Notes under the pieces: model-generated
What the model was told of the DNA's origin: nothing
Database searches by the model: none
The model's input: the letters and a program-made list of their open reading frames with translations, nothing else
In this document: positions 1 to 13,732 of the stretch, in pieces
How positions within the stretch are numbered: the first letter of the stretch is position 1
How the letters are laid out: every line of letters begins with the position of its first letter
From: Verrucomicrobiota bacterium
GTDB lineage: Bacteria > Verrucomicrobiota > Verrucomicrobiia > Opitutales > Cerasicoccaceae
Direction of reading: 5' to 3'
Assembly (NCBI GenBank): GCA_039818205.1
Contig: JBCBUK010000033.1
Span: 1-13,732 of the forward strand
DNA: 13,732 nt
Program-made: the position numbers and the translations under genes

Positions 1-2
1 TT

Positions 3-1823
3 GAGTCCCACGGTGTCAAAACCGTCGATTGGAATCAAGTCACCTCAATTGTGCAGTATGACGAACGAACATTCTGGATTGGGACTGGTGATCAGGGCCT
101 TTACAGGGTCATTGTGACGGGCTCAGACCCAAACGACCTTGAAAGCTATCGCTTCGAGAAGTGGAACCAAAATGCTGCGGAAACATTGGGTGTCACATGG
201 GCTCATGTCGAGATGCTAGACGATCAGCTTTACTTGATTTGTGACACTGGTCTCTATATCTACAATAAAGAGCGAAACCACTTTTTTTACCGAGATAATC
301 TCGGGGATGATCTTGGAAATAATGTCTACAACGTTACTGTTTTTAAGCAGGACAACGATTCATTTTGGGTGCTGTATCAAACTGGTGATGCTGTGCCGCG
401 GCTTAAAAAGTTGACTCGATATGGAACCCATTTACGCGGGCAAGAGTTCTTCGCGCCAGCCCTTCATGAAGCCGCCGTGCCACGTAGTTTTGTGGTTAGT
501 CCTGATGAGTCTAAGATAATCATTAGCGGGGAGAATTTGGTTTGTTCCTCGTTGATTAGCGAGTTGCCAGTCATTTCAGCGCCTGAAGTCGCTCGTATCT
601 TGGTGGATGGCCAGGTAGTAAGAGAGGCTGATATAGATGGATTTTTTAGTTCGGTCGACATTGCGGTTGCTAGCCCCGATGCAACCTCAACCGATGTTCA
701 GTATCGATTTAGGGAGAATAACGAACCTTGGACCGAATGGTCAGATTCACCTATTCACCACCTATATGATCCAGATGATGGAGATATTCTTAGCTATCAA
801 TCGATCGCTTCTGGAGCGTCAATCAGTGATGTAGGTTCAATTGCACTGGCGGTAAACCCGCCTGTTTGGTTAAAACCACATTCGATTGCTTTGTATGCGG
901 CGACAGTATTCGGAGGGGTTTATTGCCTGGCATCCGCCTATCGTCGACGGTTCATGAAAAGGCTCGCTCAAGTCGAATCTGAACACCTAGAAGAGCTTGA
1001 GGTTGTTAAGGAGAAGTGTGAGCGCGATTTGGAAGGTATGCGTGCCAAGCTGATGGAATCGCATGAGGTTTCGCAGGTAGCCCAGGACGCTGGAACAACG
1101 AATTTGCGCGTTGCGGCACACGGATTCAAATCTCTTGTTTCGTCGGGCCTTGCGCACATTCGAGTCATCCTTAGTGACACTGCAATTAGTGTGCGCTCTC
1201 AGGCGTCGCTTGGTGCAATGAAGCTTCTATTCCGCAAGATCGATATTAACTTTCAGGGGGTGTTTCAGTTGGAAGACCTTGAGAAAGGAACGGTCCAACT
1301 GGAAAACGAATCGATCGAGCTAATCCCATTCTCAACCGAAATGGTTGAATGCTTTCAAATGGAAGCGACCGCGCAAGGGGTCCACTACAATTGGGATTTT
1401 GGTAATTTCGAGGAAGTGCTAGTAATGGATTTCTACGGTGACCGAACAATGCTCGAGCGCATTCTTTTCAACCTGATCGGCAATGCCCTTCGGCACTCGA
1501 AAGACGGAAAAGACGAACCGCTAGTCCGGGTCTACCCAAGCACGAGGCAGGTGGACGGAAAGACGGAACTCACACTTTCAATTGAGGATAATGGGTTGGG
1601 TGTGCCGGAGGGAGAGGAAGACAACATTTTTAGAAAATTCTACACGACAGCAGAAGACGGCTCAGGCCTTGGTTTATATCTTTCAAAGCTCATGGCTGAA
1701 TCGATGGGTGGCACTTTGCGCTGTGAAAGAAGCCGCCATGGAGGCGCAGCGTTTATTCTTTCGATACCATTTTCTCCGCCTGGAGTTATATCCAGGGAAG
1801 GAAAACAAACACCAAACGTCTAA
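3..1823 (+). CDS. Membrane-bound sensor histidine kinase, 5'-truncated (extracytoplasmic beta-propeller-like/Y_Y_Y-like sensor, one TM helix, coiled coil, HisKA-like + HATPase_c)
   Basis: Frame is open from base 3 through the GTG at 51, so the gene starts outside the window. 'FWIGTGDQGLYR' resembles two-component propeller repeats. 'QYRFRENNEPWTEWS' is Y_Y_Y-like. TM segment SIALYAATVFGGVYCLASAY is followed by RRR. H-box AAHGFKS, N-box ILFNLIGNALRH, G1 IEDNGLGV, F-box IFRKFYT, G2 GSGLGLYL. Confidence 0.93.
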   Translation, partial: ESHGVKTVDWNQVTSIVQYDERTFWIGTGDQGLYRVIVTGSDPNDLESYRFEKWNQNAAETLGVTWAHVEMLDDQLYLICDTGLYIYNKERNHFFYRDNLGDDLGNNVYNVTVFKQDNDSFWVLYQTGDAVPRLKKLTRYGTHLRGQEFFAPALHEAAVPRSFVVSPDESKIIISGENLVCSSLISELPVISAPEVARILVDGQVVREADIDGFFSSVDIAVASPDATSTDVQYRFRENNEPWTEWSDSPIHHLYDPDDGDILSYQSIASGASISDVGSIALAVNPPVWLKPHSIALYAATVFGGVYCLASAYRRRFMKRLAQVESEHLEELEVVKEKCERDLEGMRAKLMESHEVSQVAQDAGTTNLRVAAHGFKSLVSSGLAHIRVILSDTAISVRSQASLGAMKLLFRKIDINFQGVFQLEDLEKGTVQLENESIELIPFSTEMVECFQMEATAQGVHYNWDFGNFEEVLVMDFYGDRTMLERILFNLIGNALRHSKDGKDEPLVRVYPSTRQVDGKTELTLSIEDNGLGVPEGEEDNIFRKFYTTAEDGSGLGLYLSKLMAESMGGTLRCERSRHGGAAFILSIPFSPPGVISREGKQTPNV

Positions 1824-1840
1824 CATCCAAAATACGAAAT

Positions 1841-2014
1841 ATGATAAAGCTAGTACAATCAGTAATCGCTACTGCAAAATATAACGCCGGATTACGCTCC
1901 GACCATTCCGCCCTAGACCCAATCAGTACCGCAGGCTTTGGTACGTTCCCCTGCGAAGTTAAGTCGCCAAAGCCAACCACGGATGATCCATCACCAACTA
2001 AGCCCAAAGAGTAG
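1841..2014 (+). CDS. Small 57-aa ORF downstream of the kinase (MIKLVQSVIATAKYNAGLRSDHSALDPISTAGFGTFPCEVKSPKPTTDDPSPTKPKE), function unknown
   Basis: Translated by hand (below the ORF-track cutoff): ATG 1841, TAG 2012-2014. It starts 17 nt after the kinase stop, has an A-rich leader like other genes in the window, and lies upstream of the + strand terminator. Confidence 0.55.
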   Translation: MIKLVQSVIATAKYNAGLRSDHSALDPISTAGFGTFPCEVKSPKPTTDDPSPTKPKE

Positions 2015-2077
2015 AGATGTTTCTATGGAACGTTAGAAAAACGTTTTGAGTGTTTTTTCATTATAGATGTTGAAAGA

Positions 2078-2112
2078 GGTGCTCGGGCTTAGGTCCGGGC
2101 GCTTTCTTTTTT
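2078..2112 (+). terminator. Rho-independent terminator for the kinase/small-ORF transcript, overlapping the 3' end of the convergent repressor gene
   Basis: GTGCTCGGGC-TTAG-GTCCGGGCGC stem (2079-2102; three G-U pairs favour the + strand) followed by TTTCTTTTTT. Confidence 0.65.
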
Positions 2113-2838
2113 GGCATCTTGCTTAAGCTGAGCCTCATGCTCGCGCATTGATTTTCGATAGAGCTTATAACGCCGGTCCCCGTAGTCGGGATCGTCGGTC
2201 TTGTTGTTATATCGTGCCCATTGTTCGGCGTTGAGGAATGCTTCGCGGGGCAGGAAATCCTGGCGCTCAAGCATTCTCTTGGCTGCGGACTCCTCGATGT
2301 TCAACATCTTGGCCAATTCCTTGTGCTTGCCCTTATACTGGGCCCGGAAGCGTTCGCAAAAATCGGCTATCGTCTCTCCGGGGCGCGTCCATCCCTCATA
2401 GGGCGCAGGTTCGCCTTTGAATGTTGGTAGCTCCTCGGTGAGGCTAGGGGGACCGGCCTCGGCGGCGGGCTTCTCCAGCTTCGACCGTGGCGCGACGGTC
2501 CAGGGTTCTTCAAGATTTTCGGCGGTGATTGTGTCTGTCGACTTCCAGAGGCCGCGCATGATCAGTTGTACAATTTCGCGCTGATCCTTGATCCCGTTCT
2601 TTTCGCACCATTGCTTGATTTGGTCGGCGTCATACGGGGTTGCTAGCGTGCTAGCAATAGCCCCGAGCGCATCAGCGCGAGAGGAGGAAGGGGATGTGAA
2701 GGCCTCGGTTAGGTCTGCCTCTACGAGCGCCCTAATGTAGTCAGACACAGACTTAGCTCCGACTTGAGCGGCACGCTTGTGAATGCGCCCCTCAAAATCG
2801 GCGGATGCTCGCATTCCGATAATCTTGTCCTTGGTCAT
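2089..2838 (-). CDS. Putative phage repressor with N-terminal ribbon-helix-helix (CopG/Arc/MetJ-like) domain, 249 aa
   Basis: Likely start is ATG at 2838 (MTKDKIIGMRASADFEGRIHKRAAQVGAKSVSDYIRALVEADL), a beta strand plus two helices with the 'S-V-S-D-Y-I-R' RHH signature. The ORF-track extension to 2922 runs through the AT-rich promoter region. It is the only convincing leftward gene and is divergent from the early operon. Confidence 0.75.
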   Translation of the reverse strand: MTKDKIIGMRASADFEGRIHKRAAQVGAKSVSDYIRALVEADLTEAFTSPSSSRADALGAIASTLATPYDADQIKQWCEKNGIKDQREIVQLIMRGLWKSTDTITAENLEEPWTVAPRSKLEKPAAEAGPPSLTEELPTFKGEPAPYEGWTRPGETIADFCERFRAQYKGKHKELAKMLNIEESAAKRMLERQDFLPREAFLNAEQWARYNNKTDDPDYGDRRYKLYRKSMREHEAQLKQDAKKESART

Positions 2839-2968
2839 TCCCTGGGATGTATAACAAAAAAAACACAATGTAAAACGTTGTTTATCAATATCATGTATAA
2901 CCTGTAAAACAGCGTAAAACAAAAACTGTTGACCGAGTCTCCGTTTATCGCTGTATTACGTGTTAAAC
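2839..2968. promoter_or_regulatory. Divergent promoter/operator region with seven TGTAWAAC-like direct repeats
   Basis: TGTATAAC 2848, TGTAAAAC 2869, TGTATAAC 2894, TGTAAAAC 2903, CGTAAAAC 2913, TGTATTAC 2952, TGTTAAAC 2961. Rightward -35-like TTGACC at 2929-2934. Leftward TTTACA (2874-2869) and TGT-TATACA (2856-2848). Confidence 0.75.
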
Positions 2969-3232
2969 ATGAGCACCAATCCGATAGCGTTTCGCCCCCA
3001 AAGGAAATTGAGACTCCTACTCGAAGAGCAGGCAGAGAGGGAGTTTAGGGGTAATGTTTCCCAACTAATAAACCATGCCCTTGAGGCATACTTCGAGGGA
3101 GAGGGGTTGATCGATAACGACCCCAAAGCAGAGTTGCACGGGTACCTAGACGAACTGATCGACCATCACGGCGTCGAGGCCGCTGAACGAATTATCCGTC
3201 GGGGCCGAAAGGGGGCAGCATGGGCCAGCTAA
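2969..3232 (+). CDS. RHH (Arc/CopG-like) DNA-binding protein in the Cro position, 87 aa
   Basis: MSTNPIAFRPQRKLRLLLEEQAEREFRGNVSQLINHALEAYF: strand IAFRP, helix, 'NVSQLI..AL' helix. First gene of the rightward operon. ATG 2969 is preferred to GTG 2960. Confidence 0.75.
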   Translation: MSTNPIAFRPQRKLRLLLEEQAEREFRGNVSQLINHALEAYFEGEGLIDNDPKAELHGYLDELIDHHGVEAAERIIRRGRKGAAWAS

Positions 3233-3573
3233 GCCTATGGGATGAGCCCGCTGATTGGCTCAATGAGTTTGAGCAGCGTCTACGCAAGTTGCGTTTAAAC
3301 AAGCTCTTTTGGTGGACCAAAAGCCTTCGCGATATCTTTGCCGACATCCTGGCCCGTCGTGATCGATCTTACGAACAACTCATGTTGCTCGAAAATGAGC
3401 TTGAGCGCGGCGACACCGCAGCGGCCAAGGACCGAATCGCAACGCTCAAGGGCATGCTGTCGGTCTTGGCGATCATGTTCATCGGGTTTTCTGCATTTAA
3501 CGCAAGTGACGATTTCGTGAGGCATTCACGGGGCCGCCGGAAGAATGAACAATCAACCCTTATCTCAGCATGA
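3220..3573 (+). CDS. Hypothetical phage protein with coiled coil and C-terminal hydrophobic helix
   Basis: AGGGGG SD-like sequence before ATG, overlaps upstream gene, hydrophobic MLSVLAIMFIGFSAF, ATGA coupling to the next ORF. Confidence 0.75.
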   Translation: MGQLSLWDEPADWLNEFEQRLRKLRLNKLFWWTKSLRDIFADILARRDRSYEQLMLLENELERGDTAAAKDRIATLKGMLSVLAIMFIGFSAFNASDDFVRHSRGRRKNEQSTLISA

Positions 3574-3722
3574 GTGATTTTGACAAAGAATGTGAGCTTG
3601 GTGAAACGATCATGGCCTGGGTGCTTGCCGCCTTCGTGATCTTTGGAGCGGTGCAATATGCAACCGCGAACATCGAACCACAACGGCCAACCCCGGAACG
3701 CTTAGCCAAGGTAGAGCGTTAG
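3570..3722 (+). CDS. Small single-TM hypothetical protein, 50 aa (MSDFDKECELGETIMAWVLAAFVIFGAVQYATANIEPQRPTPERLAKVER)
   Basis: Translated by hand. ATGA overlap with the upstream stop, exactly fills the gap before ATG 3726, one hydrophobic helix. Confidence 0.7.
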   Translation: MSDFDKECELGETIMAWVLAAFVIFGAVQYATANIEPQRPTPERLAKVER

Positions 3723-3725
3723 CCC

Positions 3726-4073
3726 ATGAGCAAGATATTCACCAGTGAAGTCACGATTATGTGCATGTATAGCTTCACAGTTAGCTGGGTGAATAAGGGC
3801 TTCGATGAGATCTACGGCCCTGAGCCTGAGATAGTCGATTTCGATATCGACGACTCCGAGTTCGACAGCGGTAAGCGCGACCCCTTTCTCCGCTCATGGC
3901 GTCAGTTGAAGAAGCGCGTCGAGGTAATGAAGAACTACAGCGACGAAGATCTTGAGATTTACGAGGACGTGCGCGAGGCGGTCGAAGCTAATTTCCGGGA
4001 GGTCGATATCAGAACTCCCATTGAAGAGTATTTGCAACGGTCGGTTTATCCGTCCACCCGAATTCCGGCCTAA
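3726..4073 (+). CDS. Acidic hypothetical phage protein, 115 aa
   Basis: Starts 3 nt after the upstream stop, co-directional with the operon, no recognisable motif. Confidence 0.7.
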   Translation: MSKIFTSEVTIMCMYSFTVSWVNKGFDEIYGPEPEIVDFDIDDSEFDSGKRDPFLRSWRQLKKRVEVMKNYSDEDLEIYEDVREAVEANFREVDIRTPIEEYLQRSVYPSTRIPA

Positions 4074-4175
4074 CCCGCCGGGGACTTAGTATCAGTTAGG
4101 TTAGTAGTAGGATAGATAGCATAGGGGAATCAGGGGTCAGCGTTGGTCTAATCCGCGCTGGCCCCACCAACCGCA
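4063..4175 (+). ncRNA. Candidate structured cis-regulatory RNA (two hairpins, each with a possible loop pseudoknot)
   Basis: Hairpin 1: TTCCGGC/GCCGGGG (4063-4083), loop CTAACCC complementary to GGTTAG at 4099-4104. Hairpin 2: GGGGTCAGC/GCTGGCCCC (4133-4165), loop GTTGGT (4142-4147) complementary to ACCAAC (4166-4171). Confidence 0.4.
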
Positions 4176-4182
4176 AACTAAG

Positions 4183-4434
4183 ATGGATATCAACGCTGAC
4201 ATTTTACCAGGCCCGGCACTTTGCCAGATACGCGACGTTGTTCGCGAAGAGATTGAGCGAGCAAAAGAGCCGCAACCGGTTAGCGTGCTGCCGCCCGTAA
4301 TGACAATCGCAGAATTCGCGAAGCGGGTAGGGCGCTCAAGAAGCACGGTTTATAAGTGGGTCAAAGAGGGCAAGGTAAAGACCAACCGCGCAGGACTAAT
4401 CACAGCGCGAGAGGGGCGAGAATTTGGACTCTAG
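4183..4434 (+). CDS. Excisionase/AlpA/MerR-like winged-HTH DNA-binding protein
   Basis: MTIAEFAKRVGRSRSTVYKWVKEGKV matches the HTH_17-type pattern. Confidence 0.85.
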   Translation: MDINADILPGPALCQIRDVVREEIERAKEPQPVSVLPPVMTIAEFAKRVGRSRSTVYKWVKEGKVKTNRAGLITAREGREFGL

Positions 4435-4477
4435 GGGCAAGGGGAGTGATCCCGGCGGCATAGGATGGCCGTCCCTC
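4433..4477 (+). other. Tandem GC-rich hairpins in the leader of the DUF6948-like gene
   Basis: GGGA-GTGA-TCCC (4442-4453, GNRA loop) directly abuts GGCGGC...GCCGTC (4454-4473). ATTTTT follows at about 4479-4484. Confidence 0.35.
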
Positions 4478-4510
4478 GATTTTTCACAACGAACTATAAA
4501 TACCAATACC

Positions 4511-4879
4511 ATGAATAAACCAGAAGTAATATCCATTGACGGCGTTAATTATCGCCGTTCCGACACAGTCCAGTCTCTGGCCCAAAACGAAGGGCTTGAT
4601 TACGTTGTTATTCGCTCCCGTGATTCAGGTTGCCATGCAGGTTACCTAAAATCCCGAAATGACCAATCAGTTACCTTGGTGCAATCGCGTCGTCTCTGGT
4701 ATTGGGATGGGGCAAGTAGCCTTTCCCAGTTGGCTATGGAGGGGGTTAAGAAGCCCGAGAACTGTAAATTTCCCTGCGAGGTTGCAGAGATCGAAGTCCT
4801 GGGAGTCTGCGAAATCATAAAGGCTACAGCAACCGCTCGTGAGAGTATCAACTCCGTCGAGACATGGGAGCAGAAATAG
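4511..4879 (+). CDS. DUF6948-like phage protein, 122 aa
   Basis: YVVIRSRDSGCHAGYL...VTLVQSRRLWYWDGASSLSQLAMEGV...EII motif series, recognised from memory as the family found upstream of Gly-rich ORFs in phages. ATG 4511 follows an AC-rich leader. The ORF-track start 4424 is upstream of the hairpins and unlikely. Confidence 0.8.
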   Translation: MNKPEVISIDGVNYRRSDTVQSLAQNEGLDYVVIRSRDSGCHAGYLKSRNDQSVTLVQSRRLWYWDGASSLSQLAMEGVKKPENCKFPCEVAEIEVLGVCEIIKATATARESINSVETWEQK

Positions 4880-5109
4880 ACAGAAAATACATGCGCGGCT
4901 ATGGCGATGGCGATGGCGATGGCTCTGGCTATGGCGATGGCGATGGCTCTGGCTATGGCGATGGCGATGGCTCTGGCTATGGCGATGGCTCTGGCTCTGG
5001 CTATGGCTATGGCTATGGCTCTGGCTCTGGCTATGGCGATGGCTATGGCTCTGGCTCTGGCTATGGCTCTGGCTATGGCTCTGGCGATGGCTCTGGCGAT
5101 GGCGAGTAG
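4864..5109 (+). CDS. Glycine-rich (Gly-X)35 peptide, X = Tyr/Asp/Ser, 81 aa
   Basis: ATG overlaps the terminal Trp codon of the upstream gene (acATGGgag). An 11-aa leader precedes 35 GX dipeptides, and the stop falls immediately after the repeat. Confidence 0.7.
   Translation: MGAEIDRKYMRGYGDGDGDGSGYGDGDGSGYGDGDGSGYGDGSGSGYGYGYGSGSGYGDGYGSGSGYGSGYGSGDGSGDGE
4897..5106 (+). repeat. 35-unit hexamer tandem repeat (GGCTAT x11, GGCGAT x11, GGCTCT x12, GGCGAG x1)
   Basis: Read directly from the sequence. Unit order YDDDSYDDSYDDSYDSSYYYSSYDYSSYSYSDSDE. Confidence 0.98.
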
Positions 5110-5141
5110 CTCCATATTTAACCAACGAACAGAAACGAACG

Positions 5142-5585
5142 ATGAAAGTAGAAATTGACCTAGCAAAAATGGTAATGACGCGAAACGGCTTAGACATTCG
5201 CACTGTTGCCCAGATCATTGAAGACATCAACTCTGAGCTACAGGCTCAAGCCGAAGACGAGAAGCCGCCGACAATCAAGAAACAGTTTGTCGTGGTGGTT
5301 TCTGATCCCGACGAGGTGCTACAGGGCAAGGTTCTGACGGGCTGGGTTGTCCAGATCCCCGAAGAGGATAGCCCGCACGTAGTTGAAGAGCGCCTATTCA
5401 GTTTGGCGCATGAATACAACATGACCAAGAAGGGTCGGCGCATCCCTGTTAAGACCGTTGCGGAGGTCTGCGAGAACGTTCCGGCACGCCTTCAGAAGGA
5501 GGCCAAGGCTTGGGTGAAGACCAAGGAGCCGGTCTACGTATTCCCGACTAAGAACCGCATTCCCCAGGCGGTAAACGTCGATTGA
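5142..5585 (+). CDS. Conserved hypothetical protein, 147 aa (KKQFVVVVSDP...GWVVQIPEEDS...KKGRRIPVKTV...WVKTKEP)
   Basis: ATG 5142 follows the AC-rich leader TAACCAACGAACAGAAACGAACG and gives a globular composition. The ORF-track extension to 4839 is a shadow frame of the repeat. Confidence 0.8.
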   Translation: MKVEIDLAKMVMTRNGLDIRTVAQIIEDINSELQAQAEDEKPPTIKKQFVVVVSDPDEVLQGKVLTGWVVQIPEEDSPHVVEERLFSLAHEYNMTKKGRRIPVKTVAEVCENVPARLQKEAKAWVKTKEPVYVFPTKNRIPQAVNVD

Positions 5586-5608
5586 TCACTTTAAACGAGG
5601 AACGAATC

Positions 5609-5917
5609 ATGAAAGTATCAGAATTAGCCGAAAAAGAAACCGCAGCAGTTAACGCGCTCAAGGCACTGCGCGAACACCTAATCAACGAGACGGGCGAGTC
5701 TTGGTTACGCCTTCGCGTGGAGGCAAACGGGTCTGGTGCAATCGAGTGGGGTCTGTACACGCCCCGTCTGGCTTGGCTCGACGCTGGGACACTACAGCAA
5801 GTTATTGATAAGGCATCCGGGAAGGGGCGCATCGATACTCTGCGTTTCGAGGCAGAACGTCGCGAACGTGCCGCAGCCGAGGCCAAGGCCGCTCTCGATG
5901 CCGCGTTGAATTCTTAA
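5609..5917 (+). CDS. Hypothetical phage protein, 102 aa
   Basis: GAGG SD-like sequence before ATG 5609, co-directional, C-terminal coiled coil. Confidence 0.75.
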   Translation: MKVSELAEKETAAVNALKALREHLINETGESWLRLRVEANGSGAIEWGLYTPRLAWLDAGTLQQVIDKASGKGRIDTLRFEAERRERAAAEAKAALDAALNS

Positions 5918-5928
5918 CCGAAGCAACA

Positions 5929-6765
5929 ATGAGCAACGCAGACATCGCGAACCTAGCGCCGGGCATCTACTACGATATGCCGTACTCGGACTATCACCAG
6001 ATAATCGCCTTTCGTAGCTCAGAATTGCGCGAAGCCGCCAAGAGCCTGCTGCACTACAAGCGCTACGTCGAACAACGCCGCGAGCCATCCTACGCGCTCG
6101 ATTTTGGTAAGGCCTTTCACGTCACCCTAGAGAAGAACCCAACGGAGATCATCAAGGCAGGGCCGACAAAGACCGCATACACTCAGAAATGGCTCAAGGC
6201 CATGGAAGCTGAGCCCGAAACCGTCTTTATCCAAGAATCAGACATTGAGATGGTTCGAGCGATGCAGCGCGGGGTCCTTGCCCATGAGGTGGGCAACAAC
6301 CTTTATCACGGGGCCGAGCACGACGAGGTGGTGATTGTCTGGGTATGCGCTGAAACGGGTGTTCGCCTGAAGTGCCGAATCGATGCGCTTACCTGTGAAA
6401 CTGCCGCAGTCGACTGGAAGACAACCGGAGCACTGAAGCTAAGAGCGCTCAAGTACGCGATCCGCGATTACGGCTACGACATTCAAATGGCCATGATTCG
6501 CGACGGTCTGCACGCGCACAAGCTCAGCCATCGCCGCGAGTTTTACAACTGCTTTGTCGAGAAGACTGAGCACTTGCCCGACGTGGCGGTTTATGAGTTT
6601 GAGATTGCCGAGCTGAACCAGGCGACGGCCCGTTACCGTCAAGCCATTCGTGACATTGAAGAGGCACGGCGCACCGATTATTGGCCGGGGATTTGCCCGT
6701 CGACATTCAAGTCAGAAGAATACGGCGAGGATTACGTTGCTGGCTTTGGAGAGGGGGCAGCATGA
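5929..6765 (+). CDS. PD-(D/E)XK exonuclease, RecE/exonuclease VIII C-terminal-like (DUF3799-type)
   Basis: PGIYYDMPYSDYH, ALDFGKAFH, EVVIVW, LKCRIDAL, VDWKTT, YGYDIQMA, FVEK motifs. Confidence 0.9.
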   Translation: MSNADIANLAPGIYYDMPYSDYHQIIAFRSSELREAAKSLLHYKRYVEQRREPSYALDFGKAFHVTLEKNPTEIIKAGPTKTAYTQKWLKAMEAEPETVFIQESDIEMVRAMQRGVLAHEVGNNLYHGAEHDEVVIVWVCAETGVRLKCRIDALTCETAAVDWKTTGALKLRALKYAIRDYGYDIQMAMIRDGLHAHKLSHRREFYNCFVEKTEHLPDVAVYEFEIAELNQATARYRQAIRDIEEARRTDYWPGICPSTFKSEEYGEDYVAGFGEGAA

Positions 6766-7184
6766 GCGAAGACACCGTCAGCGCAAATCACCCGCTACTT
6801 TACTCGGCGGATCTTGGCTATACCGGCCAGGGAAACGAGAAGCGGCACAAGGTCGCGATCGAGAAGATTACTCCGCCGGGAGTGATCAGCCGCGAGAATG
6901 GGCAAAAGACCGAGGGGCCAGTTGTGCACTTTGCCGGCAAGGAAAAAGCCCTTGAGCTTTGCAAGGCAAACCAAGTTTTTATGCGTCTTGCATGCGGTCT
7001 GAACGTGAACGCCAAACTTGAACAATGCATCGGCAAAGAGGTTGAGCTCCAAGTCCGTTTTATTGTCGGTATCGGCAACCAGGAAGGCCCAGCGATTCGC
7101 GTAATTGTGAAGAACGCCGGGCTGATCCCATTCAAGTATCAAAACGCAAAATGCATTGGGCGCGACAAGCCCAAGAACAGCTAA
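6762..7184 (+). CDS. Hypothetical beta-rich protein in the RecT position (possible ssDNA-binding/annealing partner), 140 aa
   Basis: ATGA-coupled to the nuclease with an SD-like GAGGGGG. Pattern LYSADL...VVHFAGKEKALELCKAN...IGKEVEL...AIRV recalled from phage proteins next to ExoVIII-like genes. Confidence 0.65.
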   Translation: MSEDTVSANHPLLYSADLGYTGQGNEKRHKVAIEKITPPGVISRENGQKTEGPVVHFAGKEKALELCKANQVFMRLACGLNVNAKLEQCIGKEVELQVRFIVGIGNQEGPAIRVIVKNAGLIPFKYQNAKCIGRDKPKNS

Positions 7185-7196
7185 CCAAGAGAACCA

Positions 7197-8018
7197 ATGA
7201 GCGACACACCGAGAACAGACGAGATTTTCAAAACCAAATGGGAGTGGATCGTGGTCAACTCCTCTGCTGGAAAGGATAGCCAAACGGCTTTGCGTACTGT
7301 CGTCGAAGAGTGCGACCAACAGGGCGTTTCACGCGACCGCATTGTGGTATCCCATCAGGACCTCGGGCACATGGAATGGGACGGCACGCGCGAGTTGGTG
7401 GAAAAGCAGGCCGCACATTATGGATTACGTGTCGAGGTATCTCGCTACCGCAATAAGGATGGCGATGAATTGAGTTTGCTGGACTATGTGCGCAAGCGCG
7501 GAAAATGGCCCGATAGCAAAAACCGCTTCTGCACCTCGGAATTTAAGCGCGGGCCAGGTGGGCGGGTTATCACAAAGTTATTTCGTGAGCGGCCTGGGCC
7601 TATTCTAAATGTTTACGGTTTTCGAGACGAAGAATCCACAGCCAGGGCCAAGAAGCAATCCTTTGTGCGCAATGGGAGATTTAGCACCAAGACTCGTGAA
7701 GTTTGGGACTGGCTACCGATTCGCAATTGGAGCGAAGGCGAGGTATGGCGGAGCATCAGAGAGTCAGGGGTGCCACACCATGAGGCATACGATTTGGGTA
7801 TGCCCAGGCTTTCTTGTTCCTTTTGCATCTTTGCCCCCAAGGCCGCGCTGATGATCGCGGGCCGTGCAAGGCCTGACCTGCTCAACGAATACTGCGACCT
7901 GGAAGAGGAAATCGGCCACACGTTTCAGAATGGCCGCTCGATCAGTGAAATCCGGGCAGCGATTCAGGCGGGTGAAATTATTGAATCAGAGGCGCTGCAT
8001 GGCGCCTGGAACATGTAA
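7197..8018 (+). CDS. Phosphoadenosine phosphosulfate (PAPS) reductase-family / DndC-like PP-loop protein
   Basis: PP-loop VVNSSAGKDS, RFCTSEFK, GFRDEESTARA, PIRNWS, RLSCSFCIF. Confidence 0.9.
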   Translation: MSDTPRTDEIFKTKWEWIVVNSSAGKDSQTALRTVVEECDQQGVSRDRIVVSHQDLGHMEWDGTRELVEKQAAHYGLRVEVSRYRNKDGDELSLLDYVRKRGKWPDSKNRFCTSEFKRGPGGRVITKLFRERPGPILNVYGFRDEESTARAKKQSFVRNGRFSTKTREVWDWLPIRNWSEGEVWRSIRESGVPHHEAYDLGMPRLSCSFCIFAPKAALMIAGRARPDLLNEYCDLEEEIGHTFQNGRSISEIRAAIQAGEIIESEALHGAWNM

Positions 8019-8044
8019 CCCCGCCCCGGCGAACGACCAATAGC

Positions 8045-8512
8045 ATGAGCCTACAAATCTTCATTCCCTGCGACCCACCCAAGGCCACTGCCCAACAGCA
8101 GAAGACAACCGTATTCGCGGGCAAAGTGCGTAAGTACGATCCCAAGAATGTTCGAGACGCGAAAGAATTCCTCGCGTCTGTCCTCGCTTCAAAGGCACCA
8201 GCGACACCATTCACCGGCCCGCTACGCTTCGTTCTGCTCTATCGCTATCCCTGGCGCAAGGCAGAGAAGAAAAGCGTCATGCAGAAGCATAGCAGCTACC
8301 CCTGCGACAAGCGACCCGACTTCGACAACATCGCCAAGGGACTCAATGACATTCTACAGCGTCTTCGCTACTTCGAGGATGACTCACAGATAGCCGATGG
8401 CCGCGTGATCAAGGAATGGGGCGACCAACCTGGAATTGGAATCACCATCGAGCCAATCGACACCGAGAACTACGAACCAGCCTGTGAAGGCCAGCAAGCA
8501 CTTTTCTCATGA
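8045..8512 (+). CDS. rusA: RusA-family Holliday junction resolvase
   Basis: KRPDFDNIAKGLNDIL...FEDDSQI catalytic motifs. Confidence 0.9.
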   Translation: MSLQIFIPCDPPKATAQQQKTTVFAGKVRKYDPKNVRDAKEFLASVLASKAPATPFTGPLRFVLLYRYPWRKAEKKSVMQKHSSYPCDKRPDFDNIAKGLNDILQRLRYFEDDSQIADGRVIKEWGDQPGIGITIEPIDTENYEPACEGQQALFS

Positions 8513-8691
8513 GCGCCTGGAGCAAGCCAGAGTATGCCGCCGCTTTCTGCCAAGGCTATGCCTGGTACTGGGACTGCGAAGACACCCGCTTTGACAGCCC
8601 ATACACCATCTCCCCATACCCACAATTTACCAATCGGCAGAAGGCCTACGTCATGGGCTGGAATGCCGCCAAACGAGAGGATTTGAAATGA
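8509..8691 (+). CDS. Small protein with Rmf/CrpP-like motif, 60 aa
   Basis: ATGA-coupled at both ends. AF.QGY...PY...R.KAY.MGW pattern. Confidence 0.65.
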   Translation: MSAWSKPEYAAAFCQGYAWYWDCEDTRFDSPYTISPYPQFTNRQKAYVMGWNAAKREDLK

Positions 8692-8996
8692 AGAATCTAG
8701 ACCTTATTGAGTTAGTAGTTGCGCAACACATGGACCTAGAGCTCGGCTTTATGGCTTGTAAGAAGCCGAAGGGGCCAAGTTCGGATGCCAGAACAATGGT
8801 ACTGGGTATAGCGCGACAGAATACTGATTGCACATGCCAGCAAATCGGCGACCATTTCGGACGCTGCAACAGCAATGTTTCTGTGGCCGCTAAACGCCAC
8901 CAAGATCTTTACGAAACAGAACTCCCATATCGGAGCAAGGTTGAGGCAATAAAAGATCAGCTTTTGAACGGCGTGCCGGTAGGAGGGCACCGGTAG
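8688..8996 (+). CDS. Stand-alone DnaA C-terminal (domain IV)-like HTH protein, 102 aa
   Basis: ARTMVLGIARQNTDCTCQQIGDHFGRCNSNVSVA parallels the DnaA domain IV pattern PRQ.AM.L..ELT..SL..IG..FG.RDHTTV.HA. Confidence 0.75.
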   Translation: MKNLDLIELVVAQHMDLELGFMACKKPKGPSSDARTMVLGIARQNTDCTCQQIGDHFGRCNSNVSVAAKRHQDLYETELPYRSKVEAIKDQLLNGVPVGGHR

Positions 8997-10558
8997 TGCG
9001 TCTATCAGCGGCAGATCTGTTTTGTGGTGCTGGTGGCACGTCTGGCGGGATGCTAGAAGCGCTTCAGCTACTTGGCTACCGTGTCGACCTCACGGCTATC
9101 AATCACTGGGATGTAGCGATCGCGACACACTCCGCGAACCACCCTGGCGCCCGACATCTTTGCACGTCATTGGACAACGTGAACCCTCGCGAACTGTTCA
9201 AAGAAGGGGGCTTAGATATTCTCTGGGCCTCCCCTGAATGCACCCACCACAGCCAAGCTAGAGGAGGGAAGCCGATCAGTGATCAAAGCCGGGCGACGGC
9301 ATGGTGCGTGACACGATGGGCCGAAGCACTACGTCCGAATGTTATTCTAGTAGAGAATGTACCAGAATTTCAAAGTTGGGGGCCAATTGGAACAAACGGA
9401 AGGCCACTGAAATCTCGTAAGGGAGAGGTCTTCGAGGCCTGGTGTTCTACTTTGCGGGCTTTGGGCTATCGAGTAGAACACCGCGTGCTCTGTTGCGCTG
9501 ACTATGGAGACCCAACGACTCGCCGTCGCCTGTTCGTTCAAGCAGTCCGCGGCCGGCGTAGAATCGTATGGCCTAACCCGACGCACGTGCCACAAGGCGA
9601 GACTGATTTACTTGGACAGCGTAGAGCGTGGGTGCCAGCCCGTGACATCATTAACTGGAACACGCCAAGCCAGAGCATTTTCGACCGCAAGCGTCCACTG
9701 AAGCCGAAGACACTCAAACGGGTCTGGACCGGGTTGCTCAAGTATGGCCTGAAGCCGTATCTTGTTACGCCAGGACACGGCGACCATGCAGACCGCGCCG
9801 ATCAGGACCGCAGCGCAAGCATTGATAATCCACTTGGCACCGTGCCAACATCAAACCGATTTGCGGCCGTCGAACCTTACCTCGTAGAGATGCGAGGCAC
9901 TTCGACGGCCAAGGATATCGATAAGCCTGTTGGTGCTCTGACAACTGGAAATCACCAGAACCTTGCTGAACCCTACTTGATCGGCATGGAGCACGGAGGA
10001 AGCGAACACACCAGCGACAAACCATTGCCGACGGTCACTTGCGCCAAAGGTGGAGCATTCGCCGCCGTAGAGCCTTATATCATCCCTCAACAGTCTGGAG
10101 GCGCGTCCGCCGACAGTATAGAGCGTCCGGTTCGTGCGATCACTTCTCGGGGCGCTGAGCAACTGGCTACGCCGTTCCTGGTCAAATACAACGGTACTGC
10201 GGATTCACGTCCAATTGTCGTGCCGCTCGATAGCGTCACCACTAAGGACCGGTTCGCACTGGTTGAGCCGATCCTGGCTGAGTGCGTTGAAAGCAAGCAG
10301 CTTCCCGTGATCAGCATCGAGGGCAAAATCTATCAGCTTGATATACGCCTCCGGATGCTACAACCGCGTGAACTAGCCCGGGCGCAAGGCTTTCCTGATC
10401 ACTACGAATTCACCGGCAACAAGACTGAGATAACCCGCCAAATCGGCAACGCCGTTCCATGGAAAACGGCCCGTGCCTTGGTCTTAGCCGTTGCTAGCCA
10501 GAACAACGAAATCGCAGGTCTATTGCCTGATGAATCTCAAGCGGAGGGGGCAGCATGA
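8996..10558 (+). CDS. DNA (cytosine-5)-methyltransferase, orphan, phage type
   Basis: Motif I DLFCGAGG, IV WASPECTHHS, VI LVENVPEF, VIII PTTRRRLF, IX RMLQPRELARAQGFP, X IGNAVP. GTG start overlaps the upstream TAG. Confidence 0.95.
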   Translation: MRLSAADLFCGAGGTSGGMLEALQLLGYRVDLTAINHWDVAIATHSANHPGARHLCTSLDNVNPRELFKEGGLDILWASPECTHHSQARGGKPISDQSRATAWCVTRWAEALRPNVILVENVPEFQSWGPIGTNGRPLKSRKGEVFEAWCSTLRALGYRVEHRVLCCADYGDPTTRRRLFVQAVRGRRRIVWPNPTHVPQGETDLLGQRRAWVPARDIINWNTPSQSIFDRKRPLKPKTLKRVWTGLLKYGLKPYLVTPGHGDHADRADQDRSASIDNPLGTVPTSNRFAAVEPYLVEMRGTSTAKDIDKPVGALTTGNHQNLAEPYLIGMEHGGSEHTSDKPLPTVTCAKGGAFAAVEPYIIPQQSGGASADSIERPVRAITSRGAEQLATPFLVKYNGTADSRPIVVPLDSVTTKDRFALVEPILAECVESKQLPVISIEGKIYQLDIRLRMLQPRELARAQGFPDHYEFTGNKTEITRQIGNAVPWKTARALVLAVASQNNEIAGLLPDESQAEGAA

Positions 10559-11409
10559 ATTGGCTTAACATAGAGACCAAGACACTACGCTCTGAGGAGT
10601 ATGTAAGCAGTGAACCAACCGAGAGAGCTGCATGGTTATCGCTGACGGGTTGGTGTGCTGAACAAGAGAATGGCGGAGTGATTAAGGACTGCCGAAACTG
10701 GAAAGACAGGAAGTGGCAACAGCTTTGCGGTGTCTTCAAAAATGAAGTCGATAGCGCCGAAAATCTACTGGTTTGGAAGGGGGATGATCTTTGCGTTTTA
10801 TTTTACCCGGTAGAGAAAGAAGCGGAAATAAGAGCTAAGCGAAAAGCCGGGAAAGTTGGCGGTAAGGCTAGCGGCAAGGCTAGACGTAATGCGGCTTCCG
10901 AAGCACAGCTTAAAGCAGAGCCTGAAGCACCCGGCGAAGCAGAGCTTCAAGCAGAACCCGAAAAGTGCTTGAACGGAAAGGAAGTAGAAGGGGAAAGGAA
11001 AGGAAAGGAAGAGAAGGGAAGTAGTACATTGGCTAACGCCAATGTGTCCAACGCTGAAGCGCCGGACCCGCCCGAAAGCGCCCCGAATTTCAAACTTGAA
11101 CCGGATCCACCAACCAAGGCCAAGGAGCCGAAAACTCCAGCACGCGAAATCGTCGAAGCCTACAACGAGATTCTCGGCCTATCGCTGCCAAAGGCACGAG
11201 CAAAAACCGATAGCAGGCAAGCAGCCATTCGGAGGTTGTGGAAATTCCTAGGCAACGACCTAGGGGAGGTGAGGGCCTACTTTCGAAAGGTCGCCGAAAG
11301 CGACTTCCTTTGTGGCCGTGGCCGCAAGCAGTGGAGGGGCTGCAACTTGGACTGGCTCTGCAAACAAGAACACATCGTAAAAATAATCGAAGGAAACTAT
11401 GACAACTGA
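10555..11409 (+). CDS. Phage replication initiator (lambda O-analogue / replisome-organiser-like)
   Basis: N-terminal helical domain, KRKAGKVGGKASGKARR linker, low-complexity repeat-encoded middle, C-terminal SDFLCGR...W...LDWL...KIIEGNYD motif typical of phage initiators. Confidence 0.75.
   Translation: MNWLNIETKTLRSEEYVSSEPTERAAWLSLTGWCAEQENGGVIKDCRNWKDRKWQQLCGVFKNEVDSAENLLVWKGDDLCVLFYPVEKEAEIRAKRKAGKVGGKASGKARRNAASEAQLKAEPEAPGEAELQAEPEKCLNGKEVEGERKGKEEKGSSTLANANVSNAEAPDPPESAPNFKLEPDPPTKAKEPKTPAREIVEAYNEILGLSLPKARAKTDSRQAAIRRLWKFLGNDLGEVRAYFRKVAESDFLCGRGRKQWRGCNLDWLCKQEHIVKIIEGNYDN
10900..11045 (+). repeat. Putative phage replication origin: five 12-bp iteron-like repeats, purine tract, perfect hairpin
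   Basis: GAAGCACAGCTT, AAAGCAGAGCCT, GAAGCACCCGGC, GAAGCAGAGCTT, CAAGCAGAACCC (10900-10959). Near-pure purine run 10975-11021. ACATTGGC-TAAC-GCCAATGT at 11026-11045. Confidence 0.65.
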
Positions 11410-11848
11410 GCGCAAAGAATGCCGGCATACTCCGCGTAAGCTATTGGTGCAGGACTACCTGCGGTCTTTCAAGCGGCGACGCGAAGCAGGGCGCTGTGGT
11501 GTGTGTGGTACAACATTCCCGGTTGCCTTCCGGCTCGGACGCATGGGAACCGAACTTGTAGACGTAGCCACCGGAAGCGATGAAGCAAAGCGACTGCAAG
11601 AGGCGATGGATTCTGAGGAGCAGCTTGAACGAGCCGTACAGGATGGCGTCATGCCATTCCCGATATGCTCATGCGAAGCCTATTACGGCAACGAGAGTGG
11701 ACACTTCGACGAGGTTCACGAATCGGCAATGCAGATTAAGCGTCAGCAAGAGGCCAAGGCCGAGGAAGACTACTGGGCTCGCAAACGAGAGCTGCTCCAG
11801 GATAGCGAGGAACAGCAAGGGCCGGGCAAGAAGGTCAACACCTGGTAG
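11399..11848 (+). CDS. Hypothetical protein with CxxC/CxC (possible Zn-binding), 149 aa
   Basis: Overlaps the initiator stop, has a GGAAA leader, and contains RCGVCG and ICSCE. Confidence 0.7.
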   Translation: MTTERKECRHTPRKLLVQDYLRSFKRRREAGRCGVCGTTFPVAFRLGRMGTELVDVATGSDEAKRLQEAMDSEEQLERAVQDGVMPFPICSCEAYYGNESGHFDEVHESAMQIKRQQEAKAEEDYWARKRELLQDSEEQQGPGKKVNTW

Positions 11849-11889
11849 CGCGACCAGACGCAGGCGGCACCGCTTAACATTTAACCAAC

Positions 11890-12726
11890 ATGAGCAGCAG
11901 CATACAAAAAGAAGTGAAGCGCCCACCATTACGCTATTTTGGCGGCAAGTTCCTGCTCGCTCCGTGGGTGCTAGAACACGTCCCAGAGCATCGAGGGTGG
12001 GTTGAGCCCTTCGGGGGCGGTGCTGGTGTCCTGTTGCGCAAGACTCGCGCTCATTCAGAGCTATACAACGACCTGGACGGCGAGATTGTAAACTTCTTCA
12101 AGCAGCTGCGTGATCGGGGGCAAGAATTTGTCCAATACCTCGAGCTGACACCGTTTTCGCGTGAGGCGTTCGAGGATTCGTATCGACTTCGAGACTCCGA
12201 AGACCCATTTGAACGTGCAGCAGCTCTGCTTATCCGTAATCAATTTGGGTTCGGGTCCAGTAGCCAAAGCCGAAAGCGTAAAACCGGGTTCCGGCACTCA
12301 GCCTACAACAACCGCCATTCATCGGCGCAAGACTGGCGGAACTTCCCGAAGCACATCCCCGCCATAGTCGACCGGCTGCGTGGCGTCGTGATCGAGAACC
12401 GAGACTATCGCGAGATTATCACCAAATGGGATTTGGAAGGTACCGTCATCTACTGCGATCCGCCTTACGTGCACGAGACCCGTAATAGCTCTGAGCGCTA
12501 TGCGTTCGAGTTTACCGACGCCGATCACCGCCAATTCAGGGAACTCCTTGAGGGCGTCAAAAATGCCTGGGTGATTATCAGCGGATACGACTGCCCGCTT
12601 TACCAGGAGCTGTTCGCCGACTGGCAATCTGTTAATCGAGTGCACCGAACTGACCGCGGAACCAAGCGCATAGAAACCCTTTGGCTGAGCCCGAACATGC
12701 CCCGGATCCAGCCCGAACTTTTTTAA
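11890..12726 (+). CDS. DNA adenine methyltransferase (Dam/D12 class, alpha-type), orphan
   Basis: PLRYFGGK, VEPFGGGAGV (motif I), YNDLDGEIVNFF, YCDPPY (motif IV), IISGYD, ETLWL. Confidence 0.95.
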   Translation: MSSSIQKEVKRPPLRYFGGKFLLAPWVLEHVPEHRGWVEPFGGGAGVLLRKTRAHSELYNDLDGEIVNFFKQLRDRGQEFVQYLELTPFSREAFEDSYRLRDSEDPFERAAALLIRNQFGFGSSSQSRKRKTGFRHSAYNNRHSSAQDWRNFPKHIPAIVDRLRGVVIENRDYREIITKWDLEGTVIYCDPPYVHETRNSSERYAFEFTDADHRQFRELLEGVKNAWVIISGYDCPLYQELFADWQSVNRVHRTDRGTKRIETLWLSPNMPRIQPELF

Positions 12727-12744
12727 CCAACAACCAAACCAACC

Positions 12745-13005
12745 ATGCACTCATTGAATATTAAGGTAGCTGACAGCGTAGACTCAGCGCCTAACTACAA
12801 CCAGGAAGGCAATTGGACAGCCGTCACATTGCACTCCTGTCTAGTCGTACCCAACGGCACCCAATTGGGCAAGCCAACGGTCGATTTGCAGCTAACCGAC
12901 AAACAGGGGAAAAAGTATGTGGCGATGATCACCGGCGATCTACTCATTCAGGCCGGCGCAGTGATCAAGGGGGTAGCAGATCGCCCAGATCCACAGAGCA
13001 ACTAA
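12745..13005 (+). CDS. Hypothetical phage protein, 86 aa
   Basis: AC-rich leader TAACCAACAACCAAACCAACC-ATG, beta-rich sequence, fills the gap between the MTase and J-domain genes. Confidence 0.75.
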   Translation: MHSLNIKVADSVDSAPNYNQEGNWTAVTLHSCLVVPNGTQLGKPTVDLQLTDKQGKKYVAMITGDLLIQAGAVIKGVADRPDPQSN

Positions 13006-13025
13006 CCAACACCGAGGAACGAATC

Positions 13026-13652
13026 ATGAGCACCGAGACCATAGACGCTTATCCACTCTGCTGGCCAGAAGGATGGAAACGAACGCCAGCACACCAACGA
13101 GTCTTTGGACAGTTCAAAGGCACTCCTGGAGAGGTTCAAATGGCAATGGTAGAAGAAGTCGAACGGCTTGTGTATGGCTACTTAGTCCAGTCTAACCGAT
13201 CGCTAAATTTGGTCGTGTCAACGAACATACCAGTGCGGCAAGATGGACTGCCCTATGTCAACGCGCGCCAACCGGAAGACCCGGGTGTTGCGGTCTATTT
13301 CGACCGCAAGGGCAAACAGCAGTGTTTCGCCTGCGATAAATACAATCGTGTATGGAAGAACATGCGGGCCATCCAGAAAACGATTGAAGCCTTACGAGGC
13401 ATCGAACGCTGGGGCAGCAGTGATATGCTAGAACGCGCCTTTACTGGGTTCGCGGCTTTACCCCCTCCTATGGTGATCAAGCCTTGGTGGGAAGTGATCG
13501 GAGTCACCGAGACTGCTCCGTTGGAACAGGTCAAGAAGGCCTACCGAAAAAGAGCAATGCTCTACCATGCGGATGCAAACCAAGGCCGAGAGGATCCGCG
13601 GATGGCAGAACTGAACGCGGCCTACGAACAAGCAATCGAAGGAAGATTATGA
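13026..13652 (+). CDS. Phage protein with C-terminal DnaJ (J)-domain; HPD replaced by HAD, 208 aa
   Basis: Start ATG 13026 after GAGG. N-terminal YPLCWPEGWKRT...DPGVAVYF...ACDKY...IEALRGIERWG...FTGFAALP. J-domain WWEVIGV...VKKAYRKRAMLYHAD...MAELNAAYEQA. Confidence 0.88.
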   Translation: MSTETIDAYPLCWPEGWKRTPAHQRVFGQFKGTPGEVQMAMVEEVERLVYGYLVQSNRSLNLVVSTNIPVRQDGLPYVNARQPEDPGVAVYFDRKGKQQCFACDKYNRVWKNMRAIQKTIEALRGIERWGSSDMLERAFTGFAALPPPMVIKPWWEVIGVTETAPLEQVKKAYRKRAMLYHADANQGREDPRMAELNAAYEQAIEGRL

Positions 13653-13732
13653 GCGAAGAAACGAAACACACGCCGGGACCGTGGGAATGGGATGGCATAG
13701 ACCCTGAGTGGCTGGTTCAGTCTGGCACCGCC
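13649..13732 (+). CDS. Hypothetical phage protein, 3'-truncated (MSEETKHTPGPWEWDG...)
   Basis: ATGA overlap with the J-domain stop, open to the window end. KHTPGPW is a common N-terminus of small phage early proteins. Confidence 0.7.
   Translation, partial: MSEETKHTPGPWEWDGIDPEWLVQSGTA

Follow-up and report, generated by a model that had tools for sequence, protein, structure and literature searches.

A prophage-borne kinase-peptide module facing a phage repressor in a Cerasicoccaceae genome, with a candidate role in lysis versus lysogeny

Can a temperate phage of a Gram-negative bacterium expose its repressor to a peptide signal that is read by a membrane histidine kinase? The question is raised by a 13,732-nucleotide contig (JBCBUK010000033.1, positions 1 to 13,732, forward strand; the window) of the Verrucomicrobiota assembly GCA_039818205.1 (Opitutales, Cerasicoccaceae), on which a sensor kinase gene and a 57-amino-acid open reading frame (ORF) run toward a convergent putative phage repressor. 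We refer to this source genome as G000 (completeness, 99.97%) and to its contigs by C numbers; the window is the entire contig C33, its left end falls inside the kinase, and the left arm is absent. We propose that C33 carries the right-hand portion of a receiver-kinase-peptide module that belongs to a prophage and faces the repressor, with a peptide route that would tune lysis versus lysogeny, and our confidence in this reading is evenly balanced between acceptance and doubt. The features on which it turns are as follows.

3 to 1823, plus strand: sensor histidine kinase ORF, 606 amino acids, 5'-open at the contig start
1822 to 1840, plus strand: A/C-rich leader before the peptide ATG, read by eye
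1841 to 2014, plus strand: peptide precursor ORF, 57 amino acids, from alignment and a host-only hidden Markov model (HMM)
~1934 to 1960, plus strand: candidate peptide core, residues 32 to 40, from the alignment
2065 to 2119, plus strand: terminator-like hairpin with a U-run (z = -5.7, 0 of 200 shuffles; terminator scan, 2076 to 2105)
2089 to 2838, minus strand: putative repressor, a convergent ORF of 249 amino acids from ATG (TTG-extended to 2922)
2110 to 2439, minus strand: shared C-terminal domain (CTD) of ~110 amino acids, common to the module-linked repressors, a candidate signal-input domain
2960 or 2969 to 3232, plus strand: divergent ORF in Cro position, 87 to 90 amino acids, ribbon-helix-helix (RHH)-like

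In the proposed route, the phage peptide would probably be matured by a YcaO-like enzyme of the host, because the phage copies of the module lack a YcaO-like gene and a single such gene is present in G000, and would then be exported. The propeller domain of the kinase would probably bind and sense the matured peptide, and a stand-alone receiver would relay the signal by contact with the repressor CTD; this relay would tune lysis versus lysogeny.

A module inside prophages

A preliminary description of this DNA, made from its letters alone, had placed the kinase and the small ORF 74 bp from the repressor stop with no integrase between them, and the reexamined ORFs bear this out: the stops of the convergent peptide and repressor genes lie 74 bp apart, and the 23 ORFs scanned in the window include no integrase. 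Contig C33 also has no tRNA gene. The hairpin in the peptide-repressor gap overlaps the 3' end of the repressor gene and is the terminator-like element that closes the kinase-peptide transcript; a promoter scan of the window gave matches at chance level only.

Four further kinase and peptide copies face a repressor in G000, on C30, C29, C13, and the start of C1. The gene order on the last three is integrase, accessory genes, an intact stand-alone receiver (128 to 131 amino acids) directly upstream of the kinase, the kinase (~1010 amino acids), the peptide, and the convergent repressor; the window kinase is ~415 N-terminal residues short of its 1009-amino-acid paralogue on C29. Gaps over the five copies are narrow (kinase to peptide, -1 to 25 bp; peptide to repressor, 14 to 74 bp). 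A PHROG integrase family is matched by all four integrases (C29, C13, C1, and C44). The C13 integrase comes after tRNA-Pro and that of C44 after tRNA-Ala, the C29 integrase adjoins a 38-bp partial copy of tRNA-Lys, past which lie tail-like genes, and the C1 integrase is flanked by a 67-bp stretch with an 81% match to tRNA-Val. Because an integrase and a stand-alone receiver lie beyond the kinase in C29, C13, and C1, the kinase-peptide module, placed between integrase/attachment (att) site and repressor, sits inside prophages and is phage cargo, as had been supposed. A core-chromosome origin was rejected, since the window kinase has no counterpart in any of five other genomes of the genus (E ≤ 1e-25) and the sister copies fall within integrase/att boundaries. 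Kinase, peptide, and CTD all give the same grouping (C33 with C30, C29 with C13, and C1), and the GC content of the window kinase is 47.9%, versus ~56% for three adjacent phage genes. C28, on which a repressor with the start of the same CTD lies at the contig edge, also carries terminase-, portal-, and capsid-like ORFs recognized by eye.

Four of four receivers, 124 to 131 amino acids long, keep Asp8, Asp52, and Lys106 and have no output domain. The response regulator noted earlier as not visible in this DNA is present in the three intact sisters, where a receiver adjoins the kinase. Leftward extension, suggested at the same time as a check, failed for C33 within the assembly, where no other contig matches the first 15 to 31 bases of C33, while the sister copies supplied the integrase and receiver that it was meant to find. 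Of the left arms that include a receiver, C44 alone is unassigned; it could belong to C33, C30, or C28, and GC content is not decisive. In run X1, possibly from the source sample, one contig reaches 445 bases beyond the window's left end. Contig depth in this run rises from 14.6 at the sensor to 24.3 at the core of the kinase and the peptide and 34.8 at the repressor, though it is no measure of cell share. A separate X1 contig (depth, 14.1) joins at position 2040 with different upstream letters that end, by eye, like the peptide's last codons; this variant is absent from G000 and hints, as a lead only, at exchanged modules on one repressor.

Two further observations concern these prophages. 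At C29:13948-13985 and C22:1848-3300, an att-like stretch separates an integrase from neighboring tail-like genes, an arrangement like that of an excised (attP) or tandem phage. At C30:19150-19320, the frame of the kinase is broken next to an inverted repeat of 124 bp close to the contig end, possibly an assembly artifact.

The peptide and its chromosomal relatives

When 114,859 six-frame segments were searched with an HMM built only from the chromosomal peptides of five other genomes, the window ORF scored E = 7e-9; the top seven matches are the seven peptide loci of G000, and the next stands at E = 0.15. By this measure of homology, and with five module copies, the 57-amino-acid ORF is a real gene conserved beyond chance, in keeping with the preliminary description, and it belongs to no family in Pfam, PHROG, or NCBIfam. 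Over 10 aligned peptides, residues M1, K3, Y14, N15, and G17 are invariant, with the Y14-N15-x-G17 motif located in the leader part of the precursor, and the ends follow an aromatic-Pro-(Cys/Ser/Thr) pattern. Interchange of Cys, Ser, and Thr at a core column fits azoline formation, the chemistry of YcaO enzymes. The window and C30 peptides carry an extra Pro-rich, charged tail of ~17 amino acids, the tails being alike in kind only, and codons 9 to 40 of the two genes comprise 10 identical, 12 synonymous-only, and 10 amino-acid-changing codons. An A/C-rich leader looks alike, by eye, in all seven G000 peptide genes, the host's included. The peptide lacks any long hydrophobic signal core; its N terminus is mildly amphipathic, with p < 0.05 versus shuffles in 3 of 10 peptides.

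The window peptide has a homologue in a chromosomal gene of 39 amino acids on C3. This gene is arranged head-to-head with that of a 1311-amino-acid hybrid propeller kinase and lies upstream of a 306-amino-acid YcaO-like gene, at a locus that also holds a TonB receptor and a LuxR regulator. YcaO-like genes occur in four of five other genomes of the genus (the one lacking it is 72% complete) and in 12 of the 61 genomes searched; at all five genus or family loci with a strong YcaO-like match, a close peptide precedes the gene and a hybrid propeller kinase stands beside them. The same peptide family appears in records titled Cerasicoccus. All 13 YcaO-like homologues match PF02624 (best, 9e-10). 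We found no AgrB (PF04647) in G000 or among the 23 window ORFs, although the control, 14 genomes, also had none above the cutoff, and no C39 exporter was found in G000. We found no published description of this Opitutales chromosomal peptide locus.

The C29 and C13 peptides (C29:6171-6290 and C13:112839-112958) are identical, and their gene plus leader is ~80% identical to the host copy at C3:253433-253552, suggesting, from DNA identity, a recent exchange of the peptide gene between phages and chromosome. Three other loci carry related peptides. At C54:31-150, on an 894-bp contig, the head-to-head peptide/kinase region of the host recurs as a second allele, with 76% DNA identity to C3 and a different core; C54 ends in a fold-back and may be a second locus, a strain variant, or a chimera. 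Another genome (G010, L018:1102-1332) encodes a multicore precursor of the ribosomally synthesized and posttranslationally modified type upstream of its YcaO-like gene, with three repeated cores whose ends resemble that of the window core. In G008, a second host-type peptide gene (L108:9823-9972) has a TonB receptor and a LuxR regulator nearby; the 20 kb examined showed neither a kinase nor a YcaO-like gene. Second peptide matches in G008 and G002 were considered as new module copies and rejected, as a host-type duplicate and noise.

The kinship with the host raises the possibility that the module is cargo for host manipulation: the peptide would mimic or jam host signaling, the phage kinase and receiver would cross-talk with a host regulator, and the CTD would be linked only, leaving the switch uncontrolled. 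The ~80% identity of the C13/C29 peptide gene and upstream region to the host fits this, as does the character of the module as low-GC accessory DNA. Phage phiCDHM1 offers a parallel: the available part of its description reports no response regulator and reads its agr genes as a means of influencing the host (Hargreaves 2014, PMC3901668). We nevertheless judge host manipulation unlikely, while granting it appreciable weight. The phages carry a receiver of their own, the window peptide has a core unlike the host's, and the CTD fusion is kept on three head types and missing from three repressors that have no adjacent peptide gene.

Repressor domain and sensor kinase

The proposal that the module acts on the repressor depends on this CTD. 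The window repressor comprises a likely RHH head (residues 1 to 46), a middle domain (~50 to 125, 53% identical to the C45 repressor), and the shared CTD, which is present on all five module-linked repressors and on that of C28. The heads differ: RHH-like with a middle domain (C33), RHH or RHH-like (C29, C1), RHH-like with S24 (C13), and helix-turn-helix (HTH) with S24 (C30, C28). The C45 repressor matches the window repressor's N-terminal half at the same 53%, lacks the CTD, and is followed by an unrelated gene; the C42 and C22 repressors likewise have neither a CTD nor a peptide gene behind them. That the CTD is kept across swapped heads suggests that it receives the module's output, for which the receiver would be the obvious carrier. 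By fold prediction the CTD is helical (predicted local distance difference test [pLDDT], 85); fold searches returned no significant match, and Atlas leads were under 0.9.

For the head, the preliminary description had named an RHH switch, which we regard as likely for both window regulators on evidence below curated thresholds. A profile of five repressor heads matches RHH structures (CopG family, Arc, NikR, ORF56; best E = 0.003), and the head is modeled as an extended N terminus with helices at 13 to 25 and 31 to 46, at a mean pLDDT of only 56. The window repressor has a subthreshold Pfam match (NikA-like, E = 0.0085); the 90-amino-acid ORF in Cro position has no Pfam or PHROG match, a weak match to the genome's RHH profile, and Atlas leads under 0.9. 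Nor is RHH a constant partner of the module: the peptide follows the kinase in five of five copies, but the C30 head is HTH plus S24.

The absence of S24 from the window repressor, also reported earlier, was upheld (a genome-wide PF00717 search has no match on C33). S24 is present in the C13, C30, C28, and C22 repressors, however, and because C13 and C30 keep it, the module input there would be additional to SOS and is not the mark of a non-SOS phage; in C33, C29, and C1, the module may be the only direct input. As a side observation, the small elements C45, C42, and C48, in which ORFs resembling replication initiators and Zot were recognized by eye, have repressor heads in common with the tailed prophages.

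The CTD could instead be the target of the peptide itself, acting inside the cell as a small antirepressor in the manner of transcription factor-small ORF (TF-smORF) systems, with the kinase controlling peptide expression or acting separately. Small antirepressors are established (PMC10432266, available text), and several features here would suit one: C29 and C13 exchanged peptide and CTD together, with the sensor excluded; the peptide lacks a long hydrophobic signal core; and neither AgrB nor a C39 exporter turned up in G000. We consider this improbable, however, since the chromosomal peptide homologue occurs in genomes without the CTD, and since the module contains no DNA-binding activator and the peptide gene, to judge from the short gap, looks cotranscribed with the kinase.

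The remaining candidate in the route is the sensor, whose parts are as follows.

Up to ~870, plus strand: C-terminal propeller blades and a Y_Y_Y-like domain, from the domain layout, followed by one membrane helix, DHp, and ATPase
882 to 938, plus strand: predicted single transmembrane helix, residues ~294 to 312, the highest hydropathy window, aligned with the paralogues' hydrophobic segment
1119 to 1133, plus strand: H-box with His373, Gly at H+1, and Ser at H+4; His373 is invariant in the alignment and aligned with the host HisKA His

The window kinase matches Pfam HATPase_c (5e-21) and has no Pfam HisKA match; His373, Asn494, and the Gly-rich boxes are invariant in the kinase alignment, and N, G1, F, and G2 boxes are present. 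It is 42% identical to the C30 kinase and 21 to 26% to the C29, C13, and C1 paralogues. Sensors diverge faster than kinase cores (C33/C30, 34 versus 58% identity; C29/C13, 45 versus 60%), reaching 17 to 45% across the five phage copies and 16 to 19% against the compared part of the host peptide-locus sensor. A profile of the five phage sensors matches the two-component sensor structures 3V9F (6e-20), 4A2L, and 3VA6/3OTT. In 300 other genomes of the order it matched 27 proteins, nearly all hybrid kinases of ~1300 amino acids, and a YcaO-like gene lies at 12 of the 15 loci examined for those kinases. A quick tree of 38 sensors, with long branches and with C33 and C30 occupying under half of the columns, places the five phage rows in one clade (Shimodaira-Hasegawa-like approximate likelihood ratio test, 94). 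This clade falls within a larger, well-supported group that also contains those hybrid kinases along with four unrelated sensors. This topology indicates that the phage sensors form an old phage-specific lineage, with no donor shown.

Such divergence leaves room for another account, in which the kinase and receiver feed the switch in response to a different periplasmic cue (a glycan, envelope damage, or a superinfecting phage protein) and the peptide either rides along or provides the host with a signal of its own. In fold, the sensor resembles two-component propeller sensors from other phyla, and the phage sensors are distant from the host peptide-locus sensor and form a clade of their own, as this account would have it; we nonetheless think it quite improbable, for the peptide gene comes after the kinase in all five copies despite the low sensor identity, and the closest genomic relatives of the sensor are mostly found at peptide/YcaO loci.

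In HisKA kinases, according to the available text of Willett and Kirby (PMC3510030), kinase activity requires an acidic residue at H+1, and phosphatase activity requires Thr or Asn at H+4. All 16 chromosomal relatives have both, with Glu or Asp at H+1. The phage copies are divided: H+1 is Gly in C33 and C30 and Glu in C29, C13, and C1, and H+4 is Ser in C33, Asn in C30, and Glu, Glu, and Ala in C29, C13, and C1, respectively. On these residues, the C33 and C30 kinases are likely phosphatase-biased, the C29, C13, and C1 kinases are likely kinase-only, and the window kinase may not autophosphorylate by the standard HisKA route. The opposite biases of the two subtypes would therefore push the receiver in opposite directions. 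It is very improbable that the window copy is instead a decaying or chimeric remnant with a dead kinase and a lost left arm, an idea prompted by the Gly at H+1, by the lack of any left arm joinable to C33, and by the interrupted C30 frame, because the kinase frame stays open through 606 codons and retains its N, G1, F, and G2 boxes, C30 has the same His-Gly motif at 58% core identity, and the X1 contig continues past the window's left end.

Extending the proposed peptide route to all copies, we tentatively envisage a Gram-negative temperate phage family with a full phosphorelay (host-matured peptide, propeller kinase, free receiver, and repressor domain), several peptide dialects, and opposite kinase-only and phosphatase-only polarities, in which coresident prophages would read the host's and each other's signals to decide who induces; this broader picture is possible, and on balance we find it doubtful.

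Counterevidence and precedents

Several observations weigh against a peptide route to the repressor. The receiver that the window module would need is not on C33. The phage sensors are not nested among the peptide-locus kinases in the quick, long-branched tree, and the structures that they match are ones that we take to be Bacteroides glycan sensors. The YcaO call for the G000 copy is weak (5e-5, below the Pfam cutoff and missed by the genome-wide family search), and a PDB sequence search with the YcaO-like protein gave no match. Neighboring genes could cotravel by linkage alone and give the same pattern as functional pairing of module and CTD, and the CTD-free controls (C45, C42, and C22) are few and nonindependent, C22 stopping 100 bp past its repressor. 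Within a single 660-bp block, the C29 and C13 peptides are identical and the CTDs are 96% identical, yet the sensors of the two copies are 45% identical; there, therefore, the peptide tracks the CTD better than it tracks the sensor. Finally, the top, nonsignificant Foldseek rows for the CTD model are XRE/HigA-type HTH proteins, and the CTD may bind DNA rather than a receiver.

The restricted distribution of the module also counts against it: it was found in no other genome, so that all copies come from one. Scans of viral contigs returned no module (one scan gave five matches, to the ATPase domain only), pattern scans of metagenomes gave zero and six matches, none of which is a peptide gene once translated, and 50,697 phage records yielded 33 weak partial matches and no module. 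The CTD has six copies in G000 and none in 400 other genomes of the order; among 1.84 billion representatives, it had eight matches, namely G000's own six proteins (two verified by sequence, four by length) and two repeat proteins. A repressor homologue search recovered the query itself only.

Among known systems, the nearest is agr3 (agrC, agrB, agrD) of the Clostridioides difficile phage phiCDHM1, likewise a temperate phage whose histidine kinase and peptide precursor are akin to those of a host peptide-signaling locus (PMC3901668, PMC7790227; available text). The present module differs in its Gram-negative host, its propeller/Y_Y_Y sensor with one membrane helix, and its unrelated peptide, which is of the YcaO-locus family and not AgrD; no processing enzyme lies on the phage and no AgrB was found in the genome. 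In addition, the neighboring repressor carries a domain dedicated to the module, at least five diverged copies occur in this one genome, and the module has its own stand-alone receiver, none being found for phiCDHM1 in the accessible portion of PMC3901668. Arbitrium (AimP/AimR/AimX, SPbeta group) likewise pairs a phage peptide in sequence variants with a proposed role in lysis/lysogeny, but its receptor is a cytoplasmic TPR/RRNPP transcription factor (PMC7790227, PMC11945551; in the parts available). Here there are a membrane kinase and a receiver; no homology was seen, and a homologue of the peptide is encoded by the host chromosome. The 23 window ORFs include no TPR family that could mark an AimR-type receptor, and the peptide's neighbor is a histidine kinase.

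VqmA-phage/Qtip and TF-smORF systems resemble the proposed route in adding an SOS-independent repressor input in Gram-negative polylysogens, in some cases alongside S24 cleavage (PMC7790227, PMC10432266; available text). Unlike TF-smORF systems, the module has no identified transcription factor receptor or antirepressor promoter, its gene order includes no DNA-binding protein to serve as the activator, its small ORF belongs to a host family, and the mechanism proposed is phosphotransfer. The propeller/Y_Y_Y two-component sensors (3V9F, 4A2L, 3VA6, 3OTT) share the architecture of the phage kinases, which differ in having no fused receiver or DNA-binding domain, in being phage-borne, and in being paired with a peptide gene. 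With the Opitutales chromosomal locus of hybrid kinase, peptide, YcaO-like gene, TonB receptor, and LuxR regulator, the phage version shares a homologous peptide and a related sensor, yet it lacks the YcaO-like, TonB, and LuxR genes, its nonhybrid kinase lies downstream of a free receiver, and its peptide gene is downstream of the kinase, whereas the host peptide gene is divergent.

We found no published description of the phage module, in a search that was thin in subscription papers, and a peptide-kinase-receiver route to a phage repressor is not found in print for Gram-negative phages. Characterized peptide control of lysogeny (arbitrium) concerns Gram-positive phages with cytoplasmic receptors (PMC7790227, PMC11945551), the one phage kinase/peptide cassette found in print comes without a receiver or a shown output (PMC3901668), and natural non-SOS prophage inducers are largely unknown (PMC10432266), all as far as the accessible text of these sources goes. 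The module offers a candidate ligand, receptor, relay, and target within one polylysogen, and its five natural variants, S24-plus and S24-minus repressors among them, serve as specificity controls.

The rest of the window holds two further features.

2847 to 2865 and 2893 to 2911, no strand assigned: a pair of imperfect 19-bp direct repeats in the space that separates the divergent regulators; they are candidate operators, though two-copy repeats can be chance
4183 to 13652, plus strand: phage early/replication arm, from PHROG and Pfam matches

The early arm includes excisionase-like, exonuclease VIII, RusA, two methyltransferase, and O-like initiator genes (PHROG, Pfam). An 81-amino-acid Gly/Tyr/Asp/Ser repeat ORF (4864 to 5109) lies directly 3' of a DUF6948 gene, and positions 7197 to 12726 carry a PAPS-reductase-like gene together with C5 and N6 methyltransferases. 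Elsewhere in G000, seven tRNA genes lie within ~1 kb at C16:13079-14107, possibly on a mobile element. A 147-amino-acid phage gene of no known family (5142 to 5585) has one copy among apparently chromosomal genes at C9:61713-62165 (77% DNA identity) and another in the C13 prophage.

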